Shown here piece after piece: positions 22,966-41,117 of a stretch of DNA of 57,829 nucleotides. The position numbers and the translations under genes are program-made. The notes under the pieces were generated by a model. That model had not been told where the DNA came from. It was given only the letters and a program-made list of their open reading frames with translations, and searched no databases. The stretch's first letter is position 1; every line of letters begins with the position of its first letter. Source of the DNA: a virus (Duplodnaviria; Heunggongvirae; Uroviricota; Caudoviricetes); the IMG/VR virus record IMGVR_UViG_2822641076_000001, positions 1 through 57,829 of that record, one strand, 5' to 3'.

Positions 22966-23040
22966 TGGCACGCCCTCTAGGACTCGAACCTAGAATAGAA
23001 GTTTTGGAGACTTCTGTGTTACCAATTACACTAAAGGCGC
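22966..23040 (-). tRNA. tRNA-Trp(CCA)
   Basis: Cloverleaf, anticodon arm GAAGT-CTCCAAA-ACTTC, encoded CCA. Confidence 0.93.
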
Positions 23041-23100
23041 ATGACACCTTGCCGTTTATATTTAGTAGGAACGGCTAGGGTAGAAACCTACATACATTTG

Positions 23101-23515
23101 AAAAACTCACACAAGAAGTGCAGGAAACTCATGTGAGGTTGCACTTTTTCATATTTAGTTGTCTATAATGTTCGCATAAACCATCGTCAACGAACTCTAT
23201 CGCTCCCACACTTGCCTTCAATATGAGAAACAGAGCGACTTTCCAATGTCTACCGTTGGTGGGTTGGTATCCTTGTCCCACATCTCTTAGTAATTAAGCT
23301 TTTTTTAAGACTCGAACCGTTAATACGCTAGCATGTATTGTCACGTATTCAAGCGTGATAGCTACCTCTTCTATCCTCAACGGTGACTGCGATGATAGCA
23401 AGCAGATAAGACAATCTCTTATCGGGATGGATAATGGTATCTTTAAATCGTCCCCCATTCGGGAATGATGCAGTTGCCTTTGCACCTGACTAATTTTTTA
23501 GGCTTAGTCCACCTT
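23101..23515 (-). ncRNA. Unassigned structured RNA between tRNA-Ser and tRNA-Trp
   Basis: Many hairpins (GACTAA/TTAGTC, GATAAGA/TCTTATC, TCACG/CGTGA, AAGTGCA/TGCACTT) and no credible CDS. Confidence 0.4.
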
Positions 23516-23518
23516 TAA

Positions 23519-23608
23519 TGGAGGGAGAGAGGCTCGAACTCTCGCTACCTTTAAATAGGTACTAACAGTTTAGCAAACTGTCCTCTTCACCAACTTGAGT
23601 ACCCCTCC
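23519..23608 (-). tRNA. tRNA-Ser(GCT)
   Basis: Class II cloverleaf with a long variable arm, ACAGT-TTGCTAA-ACTGT, no encoded CCA. Confidence 0.9.
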
Positions 23609-23640
23609 AAGATAAAATCCAATTCCGTAAAAACAGAACT

Positions 23641-24458
23641 GGTCTTGCGTAGGCTGAGATTAAACCTCGCATTGAGTGCCTTTAGAAAGATTATATCTTC
23701 CTCTCTTATCCACGTAATCCTCTTTTGGAGCAATTACGTATCACTCACAACCGCACGTTTTAATTAGTCGCTGTGCATTCTGCGACCTGTTACACTACTA
23801 CTCAATAGCTCCTATTCTGTCAACGTTGCCACGCTATTAATCTCTGCTAAGAGAACCATGCAATTCACTATCAAACAATCAGAGTTTTGCGAACTCATCA
23901 TGCTCCTCATTCAACTTTCGTTGTGGGGATTTAGGTTGCCTTCGTAATGTAAGGAGACAGGCTTTCGCTTGTATGAATTTTAATTAGTCATATATTAATC
24001 ATCTTTTTAGATTACCATATCTAATACCTGTATTAGTCTCTGTGACCGAAGACGTGCTGTCTCAGTGGCTTCGTAATCTTTTGGATTACAAAATACCACA
24101 CGCCTTCATGTTCTTTCGCCAACTAGCTACTCAAACCGTAATCAAAGTTACTTTGGCTTTCGACCATTTCGCTTTCACTACTGACTGTCGCCCTTGCTTG
24201 TTAGACTCGGACTGTACAATCTCTCGATTCACTCTCGTTTCTTCATTACTTTAGCGTGGAGTGTATTGGTGCTAACCAATACTGCTACTACATCGTTGAC
24301 CTCGTAGCGTTTTCTCCGTAATTTCACGAAACTATCACCATCATCACAATGATGACTTAGGAGTGTCGATTGTGCTTGGATTGACCGTTTACACGGTGGC
24401 AACTTGTCACATTGCCTTTACGCAACTCACGTTACGCTATCAGAGCCAAGCCTCGAAG
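23641..24458 (-). ncRNA. Large structured ncRNA, ROOL-like (alternatively GOLLD)
   Basis: ~800 nt without a credible CDS inside a phage tRNA array. Dense hairpins include two with CAAAAG loops. The 3' segment AAAGGC...TAATCTCAGCCT resembles ROOL as recalled (unverified). Confidence 0.6.
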
Positions 24459-24464
24459 TAAAGA

Positions 24465-24537
24465 TGCACCTTGTAGGGTTCGAACCTACATATAACGGCT
24501 GTTTAGGCGGTCTGCTTTCACTTTAAGCTAAAGATGC
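24465..24537 (-). pseudogene. Degenerate tRNA (mismatched anticodon stem, loop CTAAACA)
   Basis: Intact acceptor (GCATCTT/AAGGTGC), D and T arms. The anticodon arm is irregular. Confidence 0.65.
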
Positions 24538-24552
24538 ATATTGAAGGGAGGG

Positions 24553-24623
24553 AGGAGTTTATCGGACTCGAACCGATTACGCCTTGACTACGCCAAGTGT
24601 TTTGCCTGTTAAACTAAAACTCC
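24553..24623 (-). pseudogene. Degenerate tRNA with a 5-nt anticodon loop (CGTAG)
   Basis: GGAGTTT/AAACTCC acceptor, intact D and T arms, anticodon arm CTTGG-CGTAG-TCAAG. Confidence 0.65.
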
Positions 24624-24626
24624 ATA

Positions 24627-24711
24627 TGGTGGCAGGGGTAGGACTCGAACCTACGAACTCGATTGAGGGGAGATTTACAGTCTCCTGTCATTGCCACTAG
24701 ACTACCCTGCC
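24627..24711 (-). tRNA. tRNA-Tyr(GTA)
   Basis: GGAGA-CTGTAAA-TCTCC, long variable arm, encoded CCA. Confidence 0.95.
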
Positions 24712-24720
24712 ATAATAAAC

Positions 24721-24796
24721 TAGCACCCCTAGAGAGATTCGAACTCCCGACTCACGGGGTAGAAACCCGTTGCTCTATCCACTGAGCTATAGGGGT
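24721..24796 (-). tRNA. tRNA-Arg(TCT)
   Basis: ACGGG-TTTCTAC-CCCGT. The 3' end reads CTA. Confidence 0.9.
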
Positions 24797-24801
24797 AAAA
24801 A

Positions 24802-24876
24802 TGATGTGGTATGAGAGAATCGAACTCTCATCTTCTGATTGGAAGTCAGAAATCATAGCCATTAGACCAATACCAC
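24802..24876 (-). tRNA. tRNA-Gly(TCC)
   Basis: TCTGA-CTTCCAA-TCAGA. The 3' end reads TCA. Confidence 0.9.
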
Positions 24877-24890
24877 ATGCTACAAAACTA

Positions 24891-24964
24891 AGAGGAGAGT
24901 GGGATTTGAACCCACGAATAATAGGGTTGCAACCTACCGTGTTAAGCCTCTTCACCATCTCCTC
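24891..24964 (-). tRNA. tRNA-Cys(GCA)
   Basis: GTAGG-TTGCAAC-CCTAT, U73 discriminator. Confidence 0.9.
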
Positions 24965-24970
24965 ATAAAA

Positions 24971-25123
<153 letters not shown>

Positions 25124-25220
25124 ATAATGGATGCTTGTTTTGATATCATAGGTCAAGCAGAACCTACCGCTTTGCGTACCGAATCGTAGATTAACGACGT
25201 GGAATCGGTAAAAACGTCAA

Positions 25221-25294
25221 TGCCGACTGTAGGAATCGAACCCACGACCTGTTGCTTACAAGGCAACCGCTCTAACCTGCTGAGCTAAGTCGGC
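25221..25294 (-). tRNA. tRNA-Thr(TGT)
   Basis: GTTGC-CTTGTAA-GCAAC. Confidence 0.93.
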
Positions 25295-25299
25295 TTAAA

Positions 25300-25530
25300 G
25301 GAGCTGTTATGTTTTTTACGTGGCGCTACTCCCCTGCGTCCACATCATTCAAGTTTTTCCGTTGCTTGCCAACTAGCTAGCTCCCGTAGTCTAGCAAGAA
25401 TTTTAAAGCCCACGTTTTATGACTTATTGTCACAGGTAGTGGAACACCCATCTTTCCTCTAATCCTATGTAAGCTGTTACCCTCAACATAAGACGACCTT
25501 TCGGAAGGGTCTTTCATCTGCATAATCTGC
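25300..25530 (-). ncRNA. Unassigned ~230-nt structured RNA between tRNA-His and tRNA-Thr
   Basis: Several hairpins and a terminal H-type pseudoknot. No ORF. Confidence 0.4.
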
Positions 25531-25533
25531 ATA

Positions 25534-25604
25534 TCAGCATGGAGAGAATCGAACTCTCATTCATGGATTCACAGTCCACTGCGTTACCATTACGCCACAC
25601 ACTG
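25534..25604 (-). tRNA. tRNA-His(GTG), atypical
   Basis: GTGGA-CTGTGAA-TCCAT. It lacks the G-1/C73 pair (C at -1, A73). Confidence 0.8.
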
Positions 25605-25662
25605 GAAACTAGATACTAAAACTAGGCTAATATCTAGTTTCCAAAGCATGGACTTTGGTCGA

Positions 25663-25736
25663 TTTCCAAGGAAGGCTTCGAACCTCCAAACTCTAGCTTC
25701 AAAGGCTAGTGACTTTACCAATTCGTCTACTCGGAA
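25663..25736 (-). tRNA. tRNA-Gln(TTG)
   Basis: CTAGC-CTTTGAA-GCTAG. Confidence 0.88.
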
Positions 25737-25740
25737 ATAA

Positions 25741-25815
25741 TGGCGGTGCATACGGGATTCGAACCCGTGCTACTTGGTAGACAGCCAAGTGTGTTAACCT
25801 CTACACTAATGCACC
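25741..25815 (-). tRNA. tRNA-Asp(GTC)
   Basis: CTTGG-CTGTCTA-CCAAG, encoded CCA. Confidence 0.95.
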
Positions 25816-25844
25816 ATAAAAGCATCCACTAAGGATGCGAAATA

Positions 25845-26087
25845 TTAAATACTAACTAAACCTTGAATATTCTTTCTTAAAACATCATTCTCAGCTTTAC
25901 TTGTTTTTGCATCTTCTACAAAGGATTGTAGATTAGCAATTTCAGCCTGAGCTTCCTTGATTACTTCGTCTAAATGTGCATCAGAAGCATCAATATCTTC
26001 AATCGCTTTTACAAATACTTCTTGGGCAGATTGTGTTTTAGCTTGAGCTTTTTTAATTCTTTTACCGTGTAAATCTCTTTTAATCAT
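25845..26087 (-). CDS. 80-aa coiled-coil protein inside the tRNA array
   Basis: RBS AAGGGGAAGGGA before MIKRDLHGK. The longer ORF in the track overlaps tRNA-Pro. Confidence 0.7.
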   Translation of the reverse strand: MIKRDLHGKRIKKAQAKTQSAQEVFVKAIEDIDASDAHLDEVIKEAQAEIANLQSFVEDAKTSKAENDVLRKNIQGLVSI

Positions 26088-26121
26088 AATTCCCTTCCCC
26101 TTTTTCTCCGTTTTAAAATAA

Positions 26122-26195
26122 TCGGGATGGCAGGACTTGAACCTACGGCATCCACACCCCAAATGTGGCACTCTACCAAACTGAGCTACATCCCG
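26122..26195 (-). tRNA. tRNA-Pro(TGG)
   Basis: CCACA-TTTGGGG-TGTGG. Confidence 0.93.
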
Positions 26196-26196
26196 A

Positions 26197-26250
26197 TGGA
26201 AGCAGGAGGTGAGTCACGACCTCATAAACAACCCGTTAGTTGCCTCCTGC
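26197..26250 (-). ncRNA. 54-nt tRNA-like RNA ending in CCA
   Basis: GCAGGAGG/CCTCCTGC stem, two short hairpins, 3' end TTCCA. Confidence 0.55.
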
Positions 26251-26251
26251 A

Positions 26252-26327
26252 TGGCGCACCTAGATGGATTCGAACCACCAACCAAAGAGTTAACAGCTCT
26301 CTGCTCTACCATTGGAGCTATAGGTGC
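26252..26327 (-). tRNA. tRNA-Asn(GTT)
   Basis: GAGAG-CTGTTAA-CTCTT, encoded CCA. Confidence 0.95.
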
Positions 26328-37363: not shown

Positions 37364-37981
37364 TTATTTTTTACATTTATAAAGAATTTCTTTGGCGTGG
37401 TCAATCCACTCCGCCAAACACTCACAAGATATATTATCAATTTCAGAAAACTCTGTTTTGTTCTTGTTATAAGATTGCTGAATTTTACTAAATTGAATCA
37501 TCACTAAATTTTTATCCAGTAATGACAATTCGCTCATATGGTACATTCTGACATCAACAGTCTTTTGCAGAGTCCAAACCGCTTCTAATTTATGGTTTGT
37601 TAATTGCTCTCTCACTTGATATAAGCCGTTTGCAAATTGTCCCAATTCGTAAATTTCATTATTATGTCGAACCGCTAAACGGTTTTCAAATTTGATAATT
37701 TTACGTTTTAAAATCTTCCCATTAATCAGGACGTTAATTACCATATTGCTAAAGATATTATTATTCACGTACTCTTTAATGAAAGAATAAATTCCATCTT
37801 TCTTAGTTTCGTCTACAATCCCCATTGCACGATAAGAAGTTTCAAAAAGTACTACACGATATTTGTTATCAAGGTTATAAGCGTTACCGCCTTTTTGTTC
37901 GCCTGTGATATCATCTTTAATTAGAACATACTCATTTTTTAAAACTGGCTTTTCGATTACTACTGTTAAATTATCTGTCAT
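37364..37981 (-). CDS. Hypothetical protein downstream of hammerhead 1
   Basis: 205 aa with the GGAGATGTTTAAAAATG leader. Confidence 0.75.
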   Translation of the reverse strand: MTDNLTVVIEKPVLKNEYVLIKDDITGEQKGGNAYNLDNKYRVVLFETSYRAMGIVDETKKDGIYSFIKEYVNNNIFSNMVINVLINGKILKRKIIKFENRLAVRHNNEIYELGQFANGLYQVREQLTNHKLEAVWTLQKTVDVRMYHMSELSLLDKNLVMIQFSKIQQSYNKNKTEFSEIDNISCECLAEWIDHAKEILYKCKK

Positions 37982-38012
37982 TTTTAAACATCTCCATTTT
38001 GTAAATTATTTT

Positions 38013-38078
38013 TGGTTTGTCTCATCAGCATGTAAAGAACCACTTTACATGGACGGGACTCGAAAGTCCCGTTTCGAC
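38013..38078 (-). ncRNA. Type II hammerhead ribozyme 1
   Basis: GTC-GAAA-C-GGGAC(TTTCGA)GTCCC-GTC^-CATGTAAAG(TGGTT)CTTTACATG-CTGATGA-GAC-A-AACCA. Full core, GUC cleavage triplet, and loop I pairs with the 3' tail. Confidence 0.92.
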
Positions 38079-38132
38079 TTGTGGGAACGTCTTCCCTACA
38101 TTTGTTATTATAAGTGATAACAAATGTATATG

Positions 38133-38279
38133 TCAATCATTATTTTTTTCATTTGTATCAATCGGGAAAAATTCACCTTTTGTAATCTTGTTTCTGATTG
38201 CTTCAATACTAACTGGTACTAGAAGCGGAGAAAACAACCCAATCAGAATAATAATTGCATCCATAAATTGATTTAACAT
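38133..38279 (-). CDS. 48-aa small membrane protein (not in the ORF track)
   Basis: Leader AAGGTGTTTAAAAATG and a hydrophobic segment AIIILIGLFSPLLVPV. Confidence 0.6.
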   Translation of the reverse strand: MLNQFMDAIIILIGLFSPLLVPVSIEAIRNKITKGEFFPIDTNEKNND

Positions 38280-38409
38280 TTTTAAACACCTTTTCCTTTT
38301 TAGATTTTTGTAAGTCGTTTGTTCAACTACCTTACATTTAATATTTTACTAAAAAAGAAGACCACTGTCAATGCATTTAATTAAAATAATTTATTATTTT
38401 TTACATTTG

Positions 38410-39152: not shown

Positions 39153-39812
39153 TTAAATTTCAAAACTTAATTGCTCCAAGTCTCTTGCATACATTCGAGC
39201 CGTTTGTTTTAGCACACAAACCGCCTGTGACAATGAAATACTTTTAACGCCAATTCTACTAATATAGAATTTTAATTCTTTTGCTCGTTCATCCCAGTAT
39301 TGTAATTTAATTCCGTTTAAATTACCGTCTCTTTCAAGACAAACTTTAATTTCCTCTTTTGTAGCAGGTAGCAAAGGAATTAAAGTTTTTAAACCGATTC
39401 CATTTACAACATTTGTGTAAAATTCTTCGTGGCTCATGATTTCCCCAGTTTCCTTGACCATCATAGAATTAACCTTGTTAAACTCTTTTAAATTCATTTT
39501 ATTTTCCACCTTTTCATTTTTGATTAATGTATCATTGATTCTTTCATTTATTTGGTCAAGAGCTTCCCAAAACCATTCAGTACCTCGTAATTCTGTACGA
39601 GTTTCATTTTCTTTAGCTATCCAGTTTTTAATGAACGTAGTATCAGTAATTAGAGACCACTCTTTATTTAAAGTGCGTTCCACATATGCTTGAACCTCTT
39701 CTACAGTCTCGCCAATCTGTGAAGCGATTGACACCGTACCATCCGTACATTTAATTAAGAAAGAGTATTTGTTTAATGTTTCAGCTTGTGTCAGTTCCAT
39801 TTTAATTTCCAC
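39153..39812 (-). CDS. Hypothetical protein
   Basis: 219 aa with its own promoter and RBS AAAAGG. Confidence 0.7.
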   Translation of the reverse strand: MEIKMELTQAETLNKYSFLIKCTDGTVSIASQIGETVEEVQAYVERTLNKEWSLITDTTFIKNWIAKENETRTELRGTEWFWEALDQINERINDTLIKNEKVENKMNLKEFNKVNSMMVKETGEIMSHEEFYTNVVNGIGLKTLIPLLPATKEEIKVCLERDGNLNGIKLQYWDERAKELKFYISRIGVKSISLSQAVCVLKQTARMYARDLEQLSFEI

Positions 39813-39907
39813 CTTTTTATTTTATTTTCGAACCTATAGTTATTATAAATGATAACAATTGCGGATGTCAATCATTATTTTTTACATTTGTGAAATCACT
39901 TTCTTTT

Positions 39908-39974
39908 CGGCTTGTCTCATCAGTATGAATAGAGCCACTATTTCACAGACTGGGAATTATTCCCCAGTTTCGAC
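39908..39974 (-). ncRNA. Type II hammerhead ribozyme 2
   Basis: GTC-GAAA-C-TGGG(GAATAATT)CCCA-GTC^-TGTGAAATAG(TGGCT)CTATTCATA-CTGATGA-GAC-A-AGCCG. The pseudoknot covaries with copy 1. Confidence 0.9.
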
Positions 39975-39999
39975 CGTTGATTTATGAATTTTGTACTTA

Positions 40000-40287
40000 T
40001 TATTCGTGTGTTTCCGTGTATTTTACTTCCATCCAAGTATAATGTTCGGCTAAATTTTTATGAATCTTTTTCGCCTCGGCTTGTGCCTTCGTTTCTTCCT
40101 CTTGTTTGTATATAATTACAACCATGTCCTCAAGTAAATCCTCATTACTATCTAAAAGGTTAACCATTAAATCAAAACCGCTTTCGTCTTCGTCTCCATT
40201 CCAGTTGAAAAGTTCGACTTGTAATTTGCTCACTCTTGATTCATTAATCTTTTTCTTTACTTCTCTCAAATCCATATTACGTTCCAT
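40000..40287 (-). CDS. Hypothetical protein
   Basis: AGGAGATGTTTAAAAATG leader before MERNMDL. Confidence 0.72.
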   Translation of the reverse strand: MERNMDLREVKKKINESRVSKLQVELFNWNGDEDESGFDLMVNLLDSNEDLLEDMVVIIYKQEEETKAQAEAKKIHKNLAEHYTWMEVKYTETHE

Positions 40288-40734: not shown

Positions 40735-41117
40735 TTTCAAACATCTCCTTCGTTGCGTCTTTTGTTATTATAAATGATAACAAAATGACATGTCAACAAC
40801 TAATTTCATTATTTGTTTCACTTGTATTCCGTTTGTTTATTACGTCCCTAATGTTACAGAAAAATCAGTGCACTGTCAATGGATTTTATGAATTATTTTT
40901 AGTTTGTAGTTTTCAATCACGCATATATATAGAAGAAACTCGAAACTACCATATAAAGAGCATTTCGACTTATATTGTATTTTTTATTCGTAATTATCTG
41001 ACTATAATCGCAGCAAAAACCAGTAAACAAAATCAAAATAGAGACAACAGGAAGAATGAGAGACAGAGCGATGACATAGGCGAGCGGTACGGCTCGTTCA
41101 TTTTTGACACTCAGTTC

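Follow-up and report, generated by a model that had tools for sequence, protein, structure and literature searches.

The window analysed here, a stretch of 57,829 nucleotides within a 153,621-bp virus record, carries on its minus strand a leftward array of small genes, and one cassette of this array contains a type II hammerhead, HH-1, between a strong promoter and a small gene. From upstream to downstream, the features of this cassette are:

38133..38279, minus strand: upstream ORF of 48 aa, driven by a promoter at 38371
38107..38136, minus strand: promoter with TTGACA (38136-38131), an 18-nt spacer and TATAAT (38112-38107), matching the sigma-70-type consensus at 12/12 positions
38080..38100, minus strand: leader hairpin UGUAGGGAAGACGUUCCCACA, the predicted 5' end of the primary transcript
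38079-38011, minus strand: hammerhead HH-1, type II
37991..37995, minus strand: Shine-Dalgarno sequence GGAGA, inside a shared leader GGAGATGTTTAAAAATG
37364..37981, minus strand: downstream gene, an ORF of 205 aa and an orphan

Both promoter hexamers had been named, at these same positions, by a previous reading made from the sequence alone (the sequence-only reading). Transcription is likely to start near 38100, which would place HH-1 about 22 nt past the start; the promoter ends about 30 nt ahead of the ribozyme, and the ATG at 37981 follows it after 37 nt. The stop codon (TGA) of the 48-aa ORF is located inside the -35 hexamer of the HH-1 promoter, 54 nt from the ribozyme, and a minus-strand terminator scan of the region from about 40.6 to 34.5 kb, which was crude and could miss AT-rich terminators, predicted none. 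With no predicted terminator and with the upstream stop codon in the -35 box, read-through RNA should reach HH-1 and be cut there. The earlier placement of the ribozyme in a 5' UTR is thus right for transcripts starting near 38100, but it gives only half the picture.

The leader hairpin at 38080-38100 is 100% identical in a related phage (L121, see below), and similar TGTA...TACA leader hairpins are present at other promoters of the array. A cut at the predicted site, between 38052 and 38051, would sever this hairpin from the mRNA. In the fold of the predicted 3' product the Shine-Dalgarno sequence is weakly paired, within a low-probability structure, and largely unpaired.

Promoters with a 12/12 match are found on the same strand at 40796, 40349, 39871, 39129 and 38136, and further promoters in the array match at 11/12 positions. 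Those at 40796 and 40349 are followed by a short leader of about 33 nt that ends in GGAGATGTTTAAAAATG. The leader of the HH-1 cassette starts and ends as this shared leader does and holds the hairpin and the ribozyme (about 100 nt) in between, which look like an insertion into the shared leader. A ribozyme is present in the leader of 1 of about 10 cassettes. The spacer and -10 element of the HH-1 promoter carry the palindrome TTGTTATCAYTTATAATAACAA, which is shared: all 12/12 promoters between 38107 and 40796 (minus strand) have a common A-rich box upstream and this operator-like palindrome over the -10 element. A second promoter type (TGCATTGACAGTG...TAAAAT) is interleaved with them, and its leaders carry 5' hairpins.

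The 205-aa protein has no match in PHROGs, Pfam or the ESM Atlas, and a tblastn search of 50,697 phage records was empty; the only relative found is encoded in L121 (87% identical). Five neighbouring small ORFs gave nothing in Pfam and only unnamed or weak families in PHROGs. A blastn search with the 1.1-kb region against the 50,697 phage records returned no match. The nearest named relatives are the large Bacillus siphoviruses vB_BcoS-136 and Tsamsa, with about 49% amino acid identity in a RecD-like helicase. Elsewhere in the window, about 12 kb from the hammerheads and also on the minus strand, a cluster at 22969-26327 comprises a GOLLD RNA (23651-24108, 204 bits), a skipping-rope RNA (23251-23385, 47 bits) and 16 tRNA genes.

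Structure and detection of HH-1

From 38079 to 38013 the minus strand reads AGUC-GAAA-C-GGGAC-UUUCGA-GUCCC-G-UC / CAUGUAAAG-UGGUU-CUUUACAUG-CUGAUGA-GAC-A-AACCA, with the slash marking the predicted cut. The individual elements, all on the minus strand, are:

38078-38076 and 38021-38019: stem II, 3' strand GUC and 5' strand GAC, 3 bp, open
38075-38072: GAAA of the core
38072-38053: stem III hairpin, with A15.1-U16.1, C-G, then GGGAC/GUCCC
38052: C17, with the predicted cut between 38052 and 38051
38051-38029: stem I, CAUGUAAAG/CUUUACAUG, 9 bp, with loop I UGGUU at 38042-38038
38028-38022: CUGAUGA of the core
38017-38013: 3' tail AACCA, complementary to loop I UGGUU and forming a 5-bp pseudoknot with it

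The sequence-only reading had described a complete type II hammerhead at 38013-38078, and each element that it listed is found at the minus-strand coordinates it gave; its cut position is exact, as counted from C17. The catalytic core (C3 U4 G5 A6 N7 G8 A9, G12 A13 A14 and a non-G H17) shows zero deviations. Standard pairs flank the core in all three stems, namely G38021-C38076 (10.1-11.1), C38051-G38029 (1.1-2.1) and A38072-U38053 (15.1-16.1); the absence of such core-adjacent pairs was a rejection criterion for Perreault et al. 2011 (PMC3088659). The minimum free energy (MFE) structure of 38100-38005 consists of the hammerhead three-way junction and the leader hairpin, with an energy of -31.2 kcal/mol (z = -4.1) that none of 200 shuffles equalled. 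In this structure a 5-nt loop closes the 9-bp stem I, a 4-nt loop closes the 8-bp stem III, and the 3-bp stem II is open. The hammerhead is the plain MFE fold even with the full leader attached, and there is no competing fold.

The pairing of loop I with the 3' tail, also noted earlier, is present and is matched by class-wide covariation of the pseudoknot in 25 relatives (see below). Its 5 bp compare with the at least 4 bp between loop I and the sequence 3' of stem II that type II hammerheads require. As stem II comprises only 3 bp, the activity of HH-1 would depend on this pseudoknot. The element contains no aptamer-like extension or conserved extra element. Rfam searches of the window and of slices gave no match to the glmS fold, and the hammerhead model accounts for the whole element. 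From its sequence, HH-1 is a genuine and complete type II hammerhead for which cleavage is predicted.

The Rfam hammerhead model, which the sequence-only reading had proposed as a check, supports this assignment. Model RF02276 (Hammerhead_II) aligns to an 81-nt slice over its full length (model positions 1-66, 38079-38011) with 43.2 bits, above the gathering score of 37; on so short a slice the filters are laxer. The hammerhead was missed in three other Rfam searches: of the whole window at the gathering threshold, of a 201-nt slice (E <= 10) and of the genome with RF02276. A poor match to the model was considered as the cause and ruled out by the score of the 81-nt slice and by architecturally identical elements on other viral contigs, which reach 39-47 bits with RF02276. 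HH-1 is lost by the speed filters and not for want of score, and its AU-rich stems probably explain this loss. In this phage with 36% GC, an element above the threshold was thus lost by the default filters and seen only with a slice of about 80 nt.

A separate covariance model, R1, was built on 25 type II hammerheads, all from other IMG/VR contigs, with both copies of the window excluded, and was run with filters off. Its structure, used for the model and for pair counts, was supplied by hand; when RNAalifold was applied to the MAFFT alignment A1, misalignment kept it from recovering stem I, and it chose the pseudoknot instead. The members of R1 were retrieved by a pattern in which the core and stem II are fixed, so that independent signal comes only from stem I, stem III and the pseudoknot. 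R1 scores HH-1 with 58.2 bits (E = 3.5e-14). Apart from HH-1 and a second copy, HH-2, the best hit of the window has 10.3 bits, and over the genome's other 96 kb the best hit reaches 14 bits.

Motifs with stem I >= 6, stem III >= 7 and stem II >= 3, the stem lengths of the weaker of the two copies, occurred in 0 of 1500 dinucleotide-preserving shuffles of the window, while loose motifs (stems of 4, 4 and 2) arise at about 0.1 per shuffled window. A 4-bp pseudoknot test was uninformative in the shuffles, and the criteria matched to the actual stem lengths were used instead. A whole-genome scan for type I and type III hammerheads gave no candidates.

A second copy, a related phage and the wider class

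Our motif scan of the 153,621-bp record gave exactly two matches, HH-1 and HH-2, which lie 1.9 kb apart on the same strand. HH-2 comprises, on the minus strand:

39975-39905: hammerhead HH-2, type II, found in our scan, R1 46.2 bits
39974-72: GUC
39971-68: GAAA
39948: C17, with the predicted cut at 39948/39947
39937-33: loop I UGGCU
39923-17: CUGAUGA
39916-14: GAC
39912-08: tail AGCCG

HH-2 shares the core and stem II (GUC/GAC) with HH-1; stems I and III differ and are still paired. The pseudoknot is changed on both sides in a compensatory manner, from UGGUU/AACCA in HH-1 to UGGCU/AGCCG in HH-2. With RF02276 the second copy scores 31.0 bits, under the gathering score of 37. Taken alone, HH-2 prefers a competing fold (-18.9 versus -16.1 kcal/mol for the hammerhead, with the pseudoknot term left out), and its hammerhead fold becomes the nested MFE only if the pseudoknot is counted. 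HH-2 is located 25 nt past the stop codon at 40000 and about 40 nt before the promoter at 39871.

Both ribozymes are also carried by a related 152.8-kb phage, IMGVR_UViG_2541047117_000001 (locus L121). They are unchanged there (100% identical) in DNA that is 84-92% identical overall nearby, and the coding DNA beside them is diverged or replaced outright. The blocks of promoter and hammerhead are virtually identical between the two phages (window 37940-38290 and 39780-40060, L121:3690-4045 and L121:1790-2075). About 300 bp are extra in L121 before HH-2, and about 280 bp of the window's 215-aa gene are absent from it. From this comparison the regulatory junctions look conserved and the cargo genes swapped. 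The sole difference within or touching either ribozyme is the base 5' of stem II of HH-2, which is G in the window (39975) and U in L121 (position 1877); this U could pair with the A that follows GAC and so extend stem II of HH-2 to four pairs. A pattern search of the Bacillus phages Tsamsa and vB_BcoS-136 found no hammerhead, a single match being at the control rate.

The class to which HH-1 belongs was described in phages and prophages by Perreault et al. 2011 (PMC3088659). A pattern fixing the core and the GUC/GAC stem II finds matches in at least 120 viral contigs. Stems I and III reach at least 3 bp in 136 of the 148 matches listed, and the pseudoknot of loop I with the tail is seen in most. 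In the 25 relatives used for R1, 93.7% of cells form standard pairs, compared to 69% when shuffled and 28-38% with slid partners, and the covariation score is 0.63 versus 0.18. For the pseudoknot helix, 95% of cells are paired and 5/5 pairs show double changes. HH-1 shares with the RF02276 class the circular permutation with capped stems I and III and an open stem II, the invariant core, the short stem II and a pseudoknot of at least 4 bp with the commonest pairing of the family, UGGYU/ARCCA. Like other members, it is located in phage DNA, where it lies in sense orientation among co-directional genes and just before a ribosome site.

While the structure is the same, the context of HH-1 and HH-2 differs from that of the class: one perfect promoter precedes HH-1 by about 30 nt, and another follows HH-2 after about 40 nt. 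For 124 type II hammerheads among the matches listed, those flanked by sufficient sequence, the stop codon of the upstream same-strand ORF precedes the ribozyme by a median of 4 nt, and often by 0-2 nt. In the same 124, a start codon led by a Shine-Dalgarno sequence follows a median of 26 nt past stem II and is found within 40 nt in 74%, compared to 10% at random positions. HH-1 fits the class downstream, where the ATG follows after 37 nt, and differs upstream, where the stop codon is 54 nt off and the promoter and leader hairpin intervene. A sigma-70 promoter matching at >=11/12 positions within 100 nt on either side was found for 0/129 of the relatives listed, in a rough test across diverse hosts. 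Thus the promoter-adjacent setting of HH-1 is atypical, as its relatives usually show the order stop codon, hammerhead and ribosome site.

Two further features of the class were observed. One contig (IMGVR_UViG_3300008255_000242, L041:8401-11326) carries seven type II hammerheads within 3 kb on one strand, several of them above the Rfam cut-off and each with a different, covarying pseudoknot. In addition, as the stop codon abuts the ribozyme in the 124 hammerheads listed, a terminating ribosome would cover the 5' part of the ribozyme, and upstream translation may therefore be coupled to hammerhead folding in the class.

Proposed transcript processing and its alternatives

Our preferred reading, held with slightly better than even confidence, is that HH-1 is an active ribozyme transcribed with the leftward array of early genes in a large siphovirus-like phage (153.6 kb), where it would trim transcripts and yield a usable, end-protected mRNA. 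The hairpins of stem III and stem I would form as the RNA polymerase passes, the 3-bp stem II (GUC/GAC) would close the core, and the pseudoknot UGGUU/AACCA would dock stems I and II. The 2'-OH of C38052 is then expected to attack its own 3' phosphate. The upstream piece would then end in the stem III hairpin and bear a 2',3'-cyclic phosphate, and the downstream piece would start at C38051 with a 5'-OH; both the cut site and the end chemistry follow from membership of the family. As the two products would be joined by only 3 + 5 bp, they should part. As the cut is located 5' of loop I and also of the tail, the mRNA of the 205-aa gene would keep at its 5' end a 9-bp hairpin within an H-type pseudoknot, about 18 nt before the Shine-Dalgarno sequence. 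RNAs from the proximal promoter near 38100 and read-through RNAs would be trimmed to one common 5' end, and the 205-aa gene would be uncoupled from upstream RNA. One block upstream, HH-2 would act as a 3'-end maker for the gene at 40287-40000.

Published systems provide partial precedents for this reading. The hammerheads in prophage clusters (the A. tumefaciens ardA region, C. scindens and A. caulinodans) resemble HH-1 and HH-2 in that they lie on one strand and bracket small phage genes, either singly or in short blocks. Clustered prophage hammerheads cleave within in vitro transcripts of about 2 kb, and those of A. tumefaciens also in vivo; they flank single genes, and it was proposed that they turn long phage transcripts into gene-length mRNAs (PMC3088659). 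In our phage, however, there are only two copies, cleavage is a prediction, and the genes have strong promoters of their own, so that the ribozymes would not be the sole route to gene-length RNAs. In D. vulgaris, three type II hammerheads are active in vivo, at least one of them beside phage genes (PMC8782182).

The closest precedent for the layout of promoter, hammerhead and gene is HHphage of the haloviruses HF1 and HF2, a hammerhead located in an early transcript, in the leader that precedes the first ORF and a few nucleotides short of the start codon. For this major early transcript, the 5' end was mapped to within 3 nt of the hammerhead cut site, so that here the stable species is the product of the cut (PMC3088659). 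HHphage differs in that it is a variant in structure, has a very short stem II, depends on high Mg2+ or salt and belongs to an archaeal host, whereas HH-1 is a canonical type II hammerhead in a phage of Firmicute type. The glmS ribozyme of B. subtilis is likewise a self-cleaving 5' UTR RNA that leaves a 5'-OH on the coding fragment, as predicted for HH-1. The likeness is positional only: glmS has an unrelated fold, is ligand-dependent and cuts at its own 5' edge, while HH-1 has no ligand-binding domain and its predicted new 5' end is a paired hairpin-pseudoknot. Synthetic insulators of the RiboJ type place a hammerhead between promoter and ribosome site and give the same hairpin-capped 5' end with any promoter; RiboJ was engineered from a plant satellite hammerhead with a different topology and an added hairpin. 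HH-1 is a natural element for which the same insulating role is predicted.

The opposite outcome, a destabilising switch like that of glmS, is possible but unlikely in our view. Here the cut would remove the 5' triphosphate together with the leader hairpin, a 5'-3' exonuclease of the RNase J1 type would degrade the product, and the 205-aa gene would be held down despite its very strong promoter. The sequence-only reading had drawn on the same argument, alongside the alternative that the structured end protects the mRNA; its precedent stands, as in B. subtilis the 5'-OH RNA left by glmS cleavage is broken down by RNase J1 (PMC3997798), but it applies by analogy only, the pointer to a host being a likeness of about 49% between the helicase and those of Bacillus siphoviruses. 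Since RNase J1 can attack a 5'-OH RNA, a short-lived product is conceivable under the processing reading as well. The leader hairpin that the cut would sever is like the 5' hairpins of other cassettes, and the restriction of the leader ribozyme to this one cassette could serve to tune down a single, possibly toxic orphan gene. Against such a switch, the predicted product starts with the fully paired 9-bp hairpin of the pseudoknot and offers no single-stranded 5' overhang. Moreover, across the relatives hammerheads directly precede the ribosome sites of many different genes, up to seven of them in 3 kb, which would be odd if cleavage destroyed the message, and the major transcript of HF1/HF2 is a product of the cut (PMC3088659). 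Both arguments favour processing and end-capping, and the context of the relatives together with the published cases leads us to lean towards a usable and stable cut product. Other observations weigh against this preference: if HH-1 served only to cut polycistronic RNA, the promoter directly upstream, a setting shared by 0/129 of the relatives listed, would make it partly redundant, and the presence of a ribozyme leader in so few of the cassettes suggests that a general need for insulation is met otherwise.

Cleavage might also be conditional, modulated by promoter origin, ribosomes, a phage protein or Mg2+, so that the ratio of cut to uncut RNA shifts during infection. Regulated cleavage was raised by Perreault et al. 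for phage hammerheads (PMC3088659), the competing fold of HH-2 would be compatible with it, and the operator-like palindrome in the promoters around both copies makes it probable that transcript origin is regulated. HH-1 itself, though, folds into the hammerhead as its MFE without a competitor and lacks an aptamer-like extension, matching the compact constitutive type II consensus, and we consider a conditional ribozyme improbable. An inactive relic or a chance look-alike is very improbable. It would agree with the occurrence of loose motifs by chance, the silence of the default Rfam pipeline on HH-1 and the lack of a hammerhead in Tsamsa and vB_BcoS-136, yet HH-1 exceeds the Rfam threshold with relaxed filters, no shuffle reached the quality of HH-1 and HH-2, the two copies carry compensatory changes, and both are perfectly conserved in L121 amid divergence. 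Finally, HH-1 and HH-2 could together release a 1896-nt RNA (39947-38052) with four small genes, whose ends would rebuild a chimeric hammerhead and be closed into an exonuclease-resistant mRNA circle through the ribozyme's reverse reaction or an RtcB-type ligase, or which would be handled as a unit. The identical cores and stems II of the two copies would suit this, and an RNA cut at both sites would carry a 5'-OH as well as a 2',3'-cyclic phosphate. Perreault et al. mentioned such excision and ligation for RNA between paired hammerheads, but found none of the products when these were sought in other clusters (PMC3088659). Moreover, GUC/GAC is the common stem II of the class, and four promoters inside the block would leave most of the RNA without both ends. 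We regard paired excision as extremely improbable.

Both the ribozyme class and its punctuation of phage transcripts are already known, and HH-1 is a well-supported, fairly ordinary example in a somewhat unusual, promoter-adjacent setting. The loss of HH-1, which lies above the threshold, by default Rfam filters in AT-rich DNA implies that hammerheads are probably under-annotated in low-GC phages. What the thousands of hammerheads in bacteria and phages are for is still listed as undefined in a review (PMC6765202). The phage studied here offers a natural comparison, with near-identical ribozymes in a 5' leader after a promoter (HH-1) and in a 3' trailer before a promoter (HH-2), both amid cassettes that otherwise share their promoters and ribosome-site leaders. 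This pair is a test bed for what a phage hammerhead does to messages, be it to stabilise them, to destabilise them or only to keep them apart.
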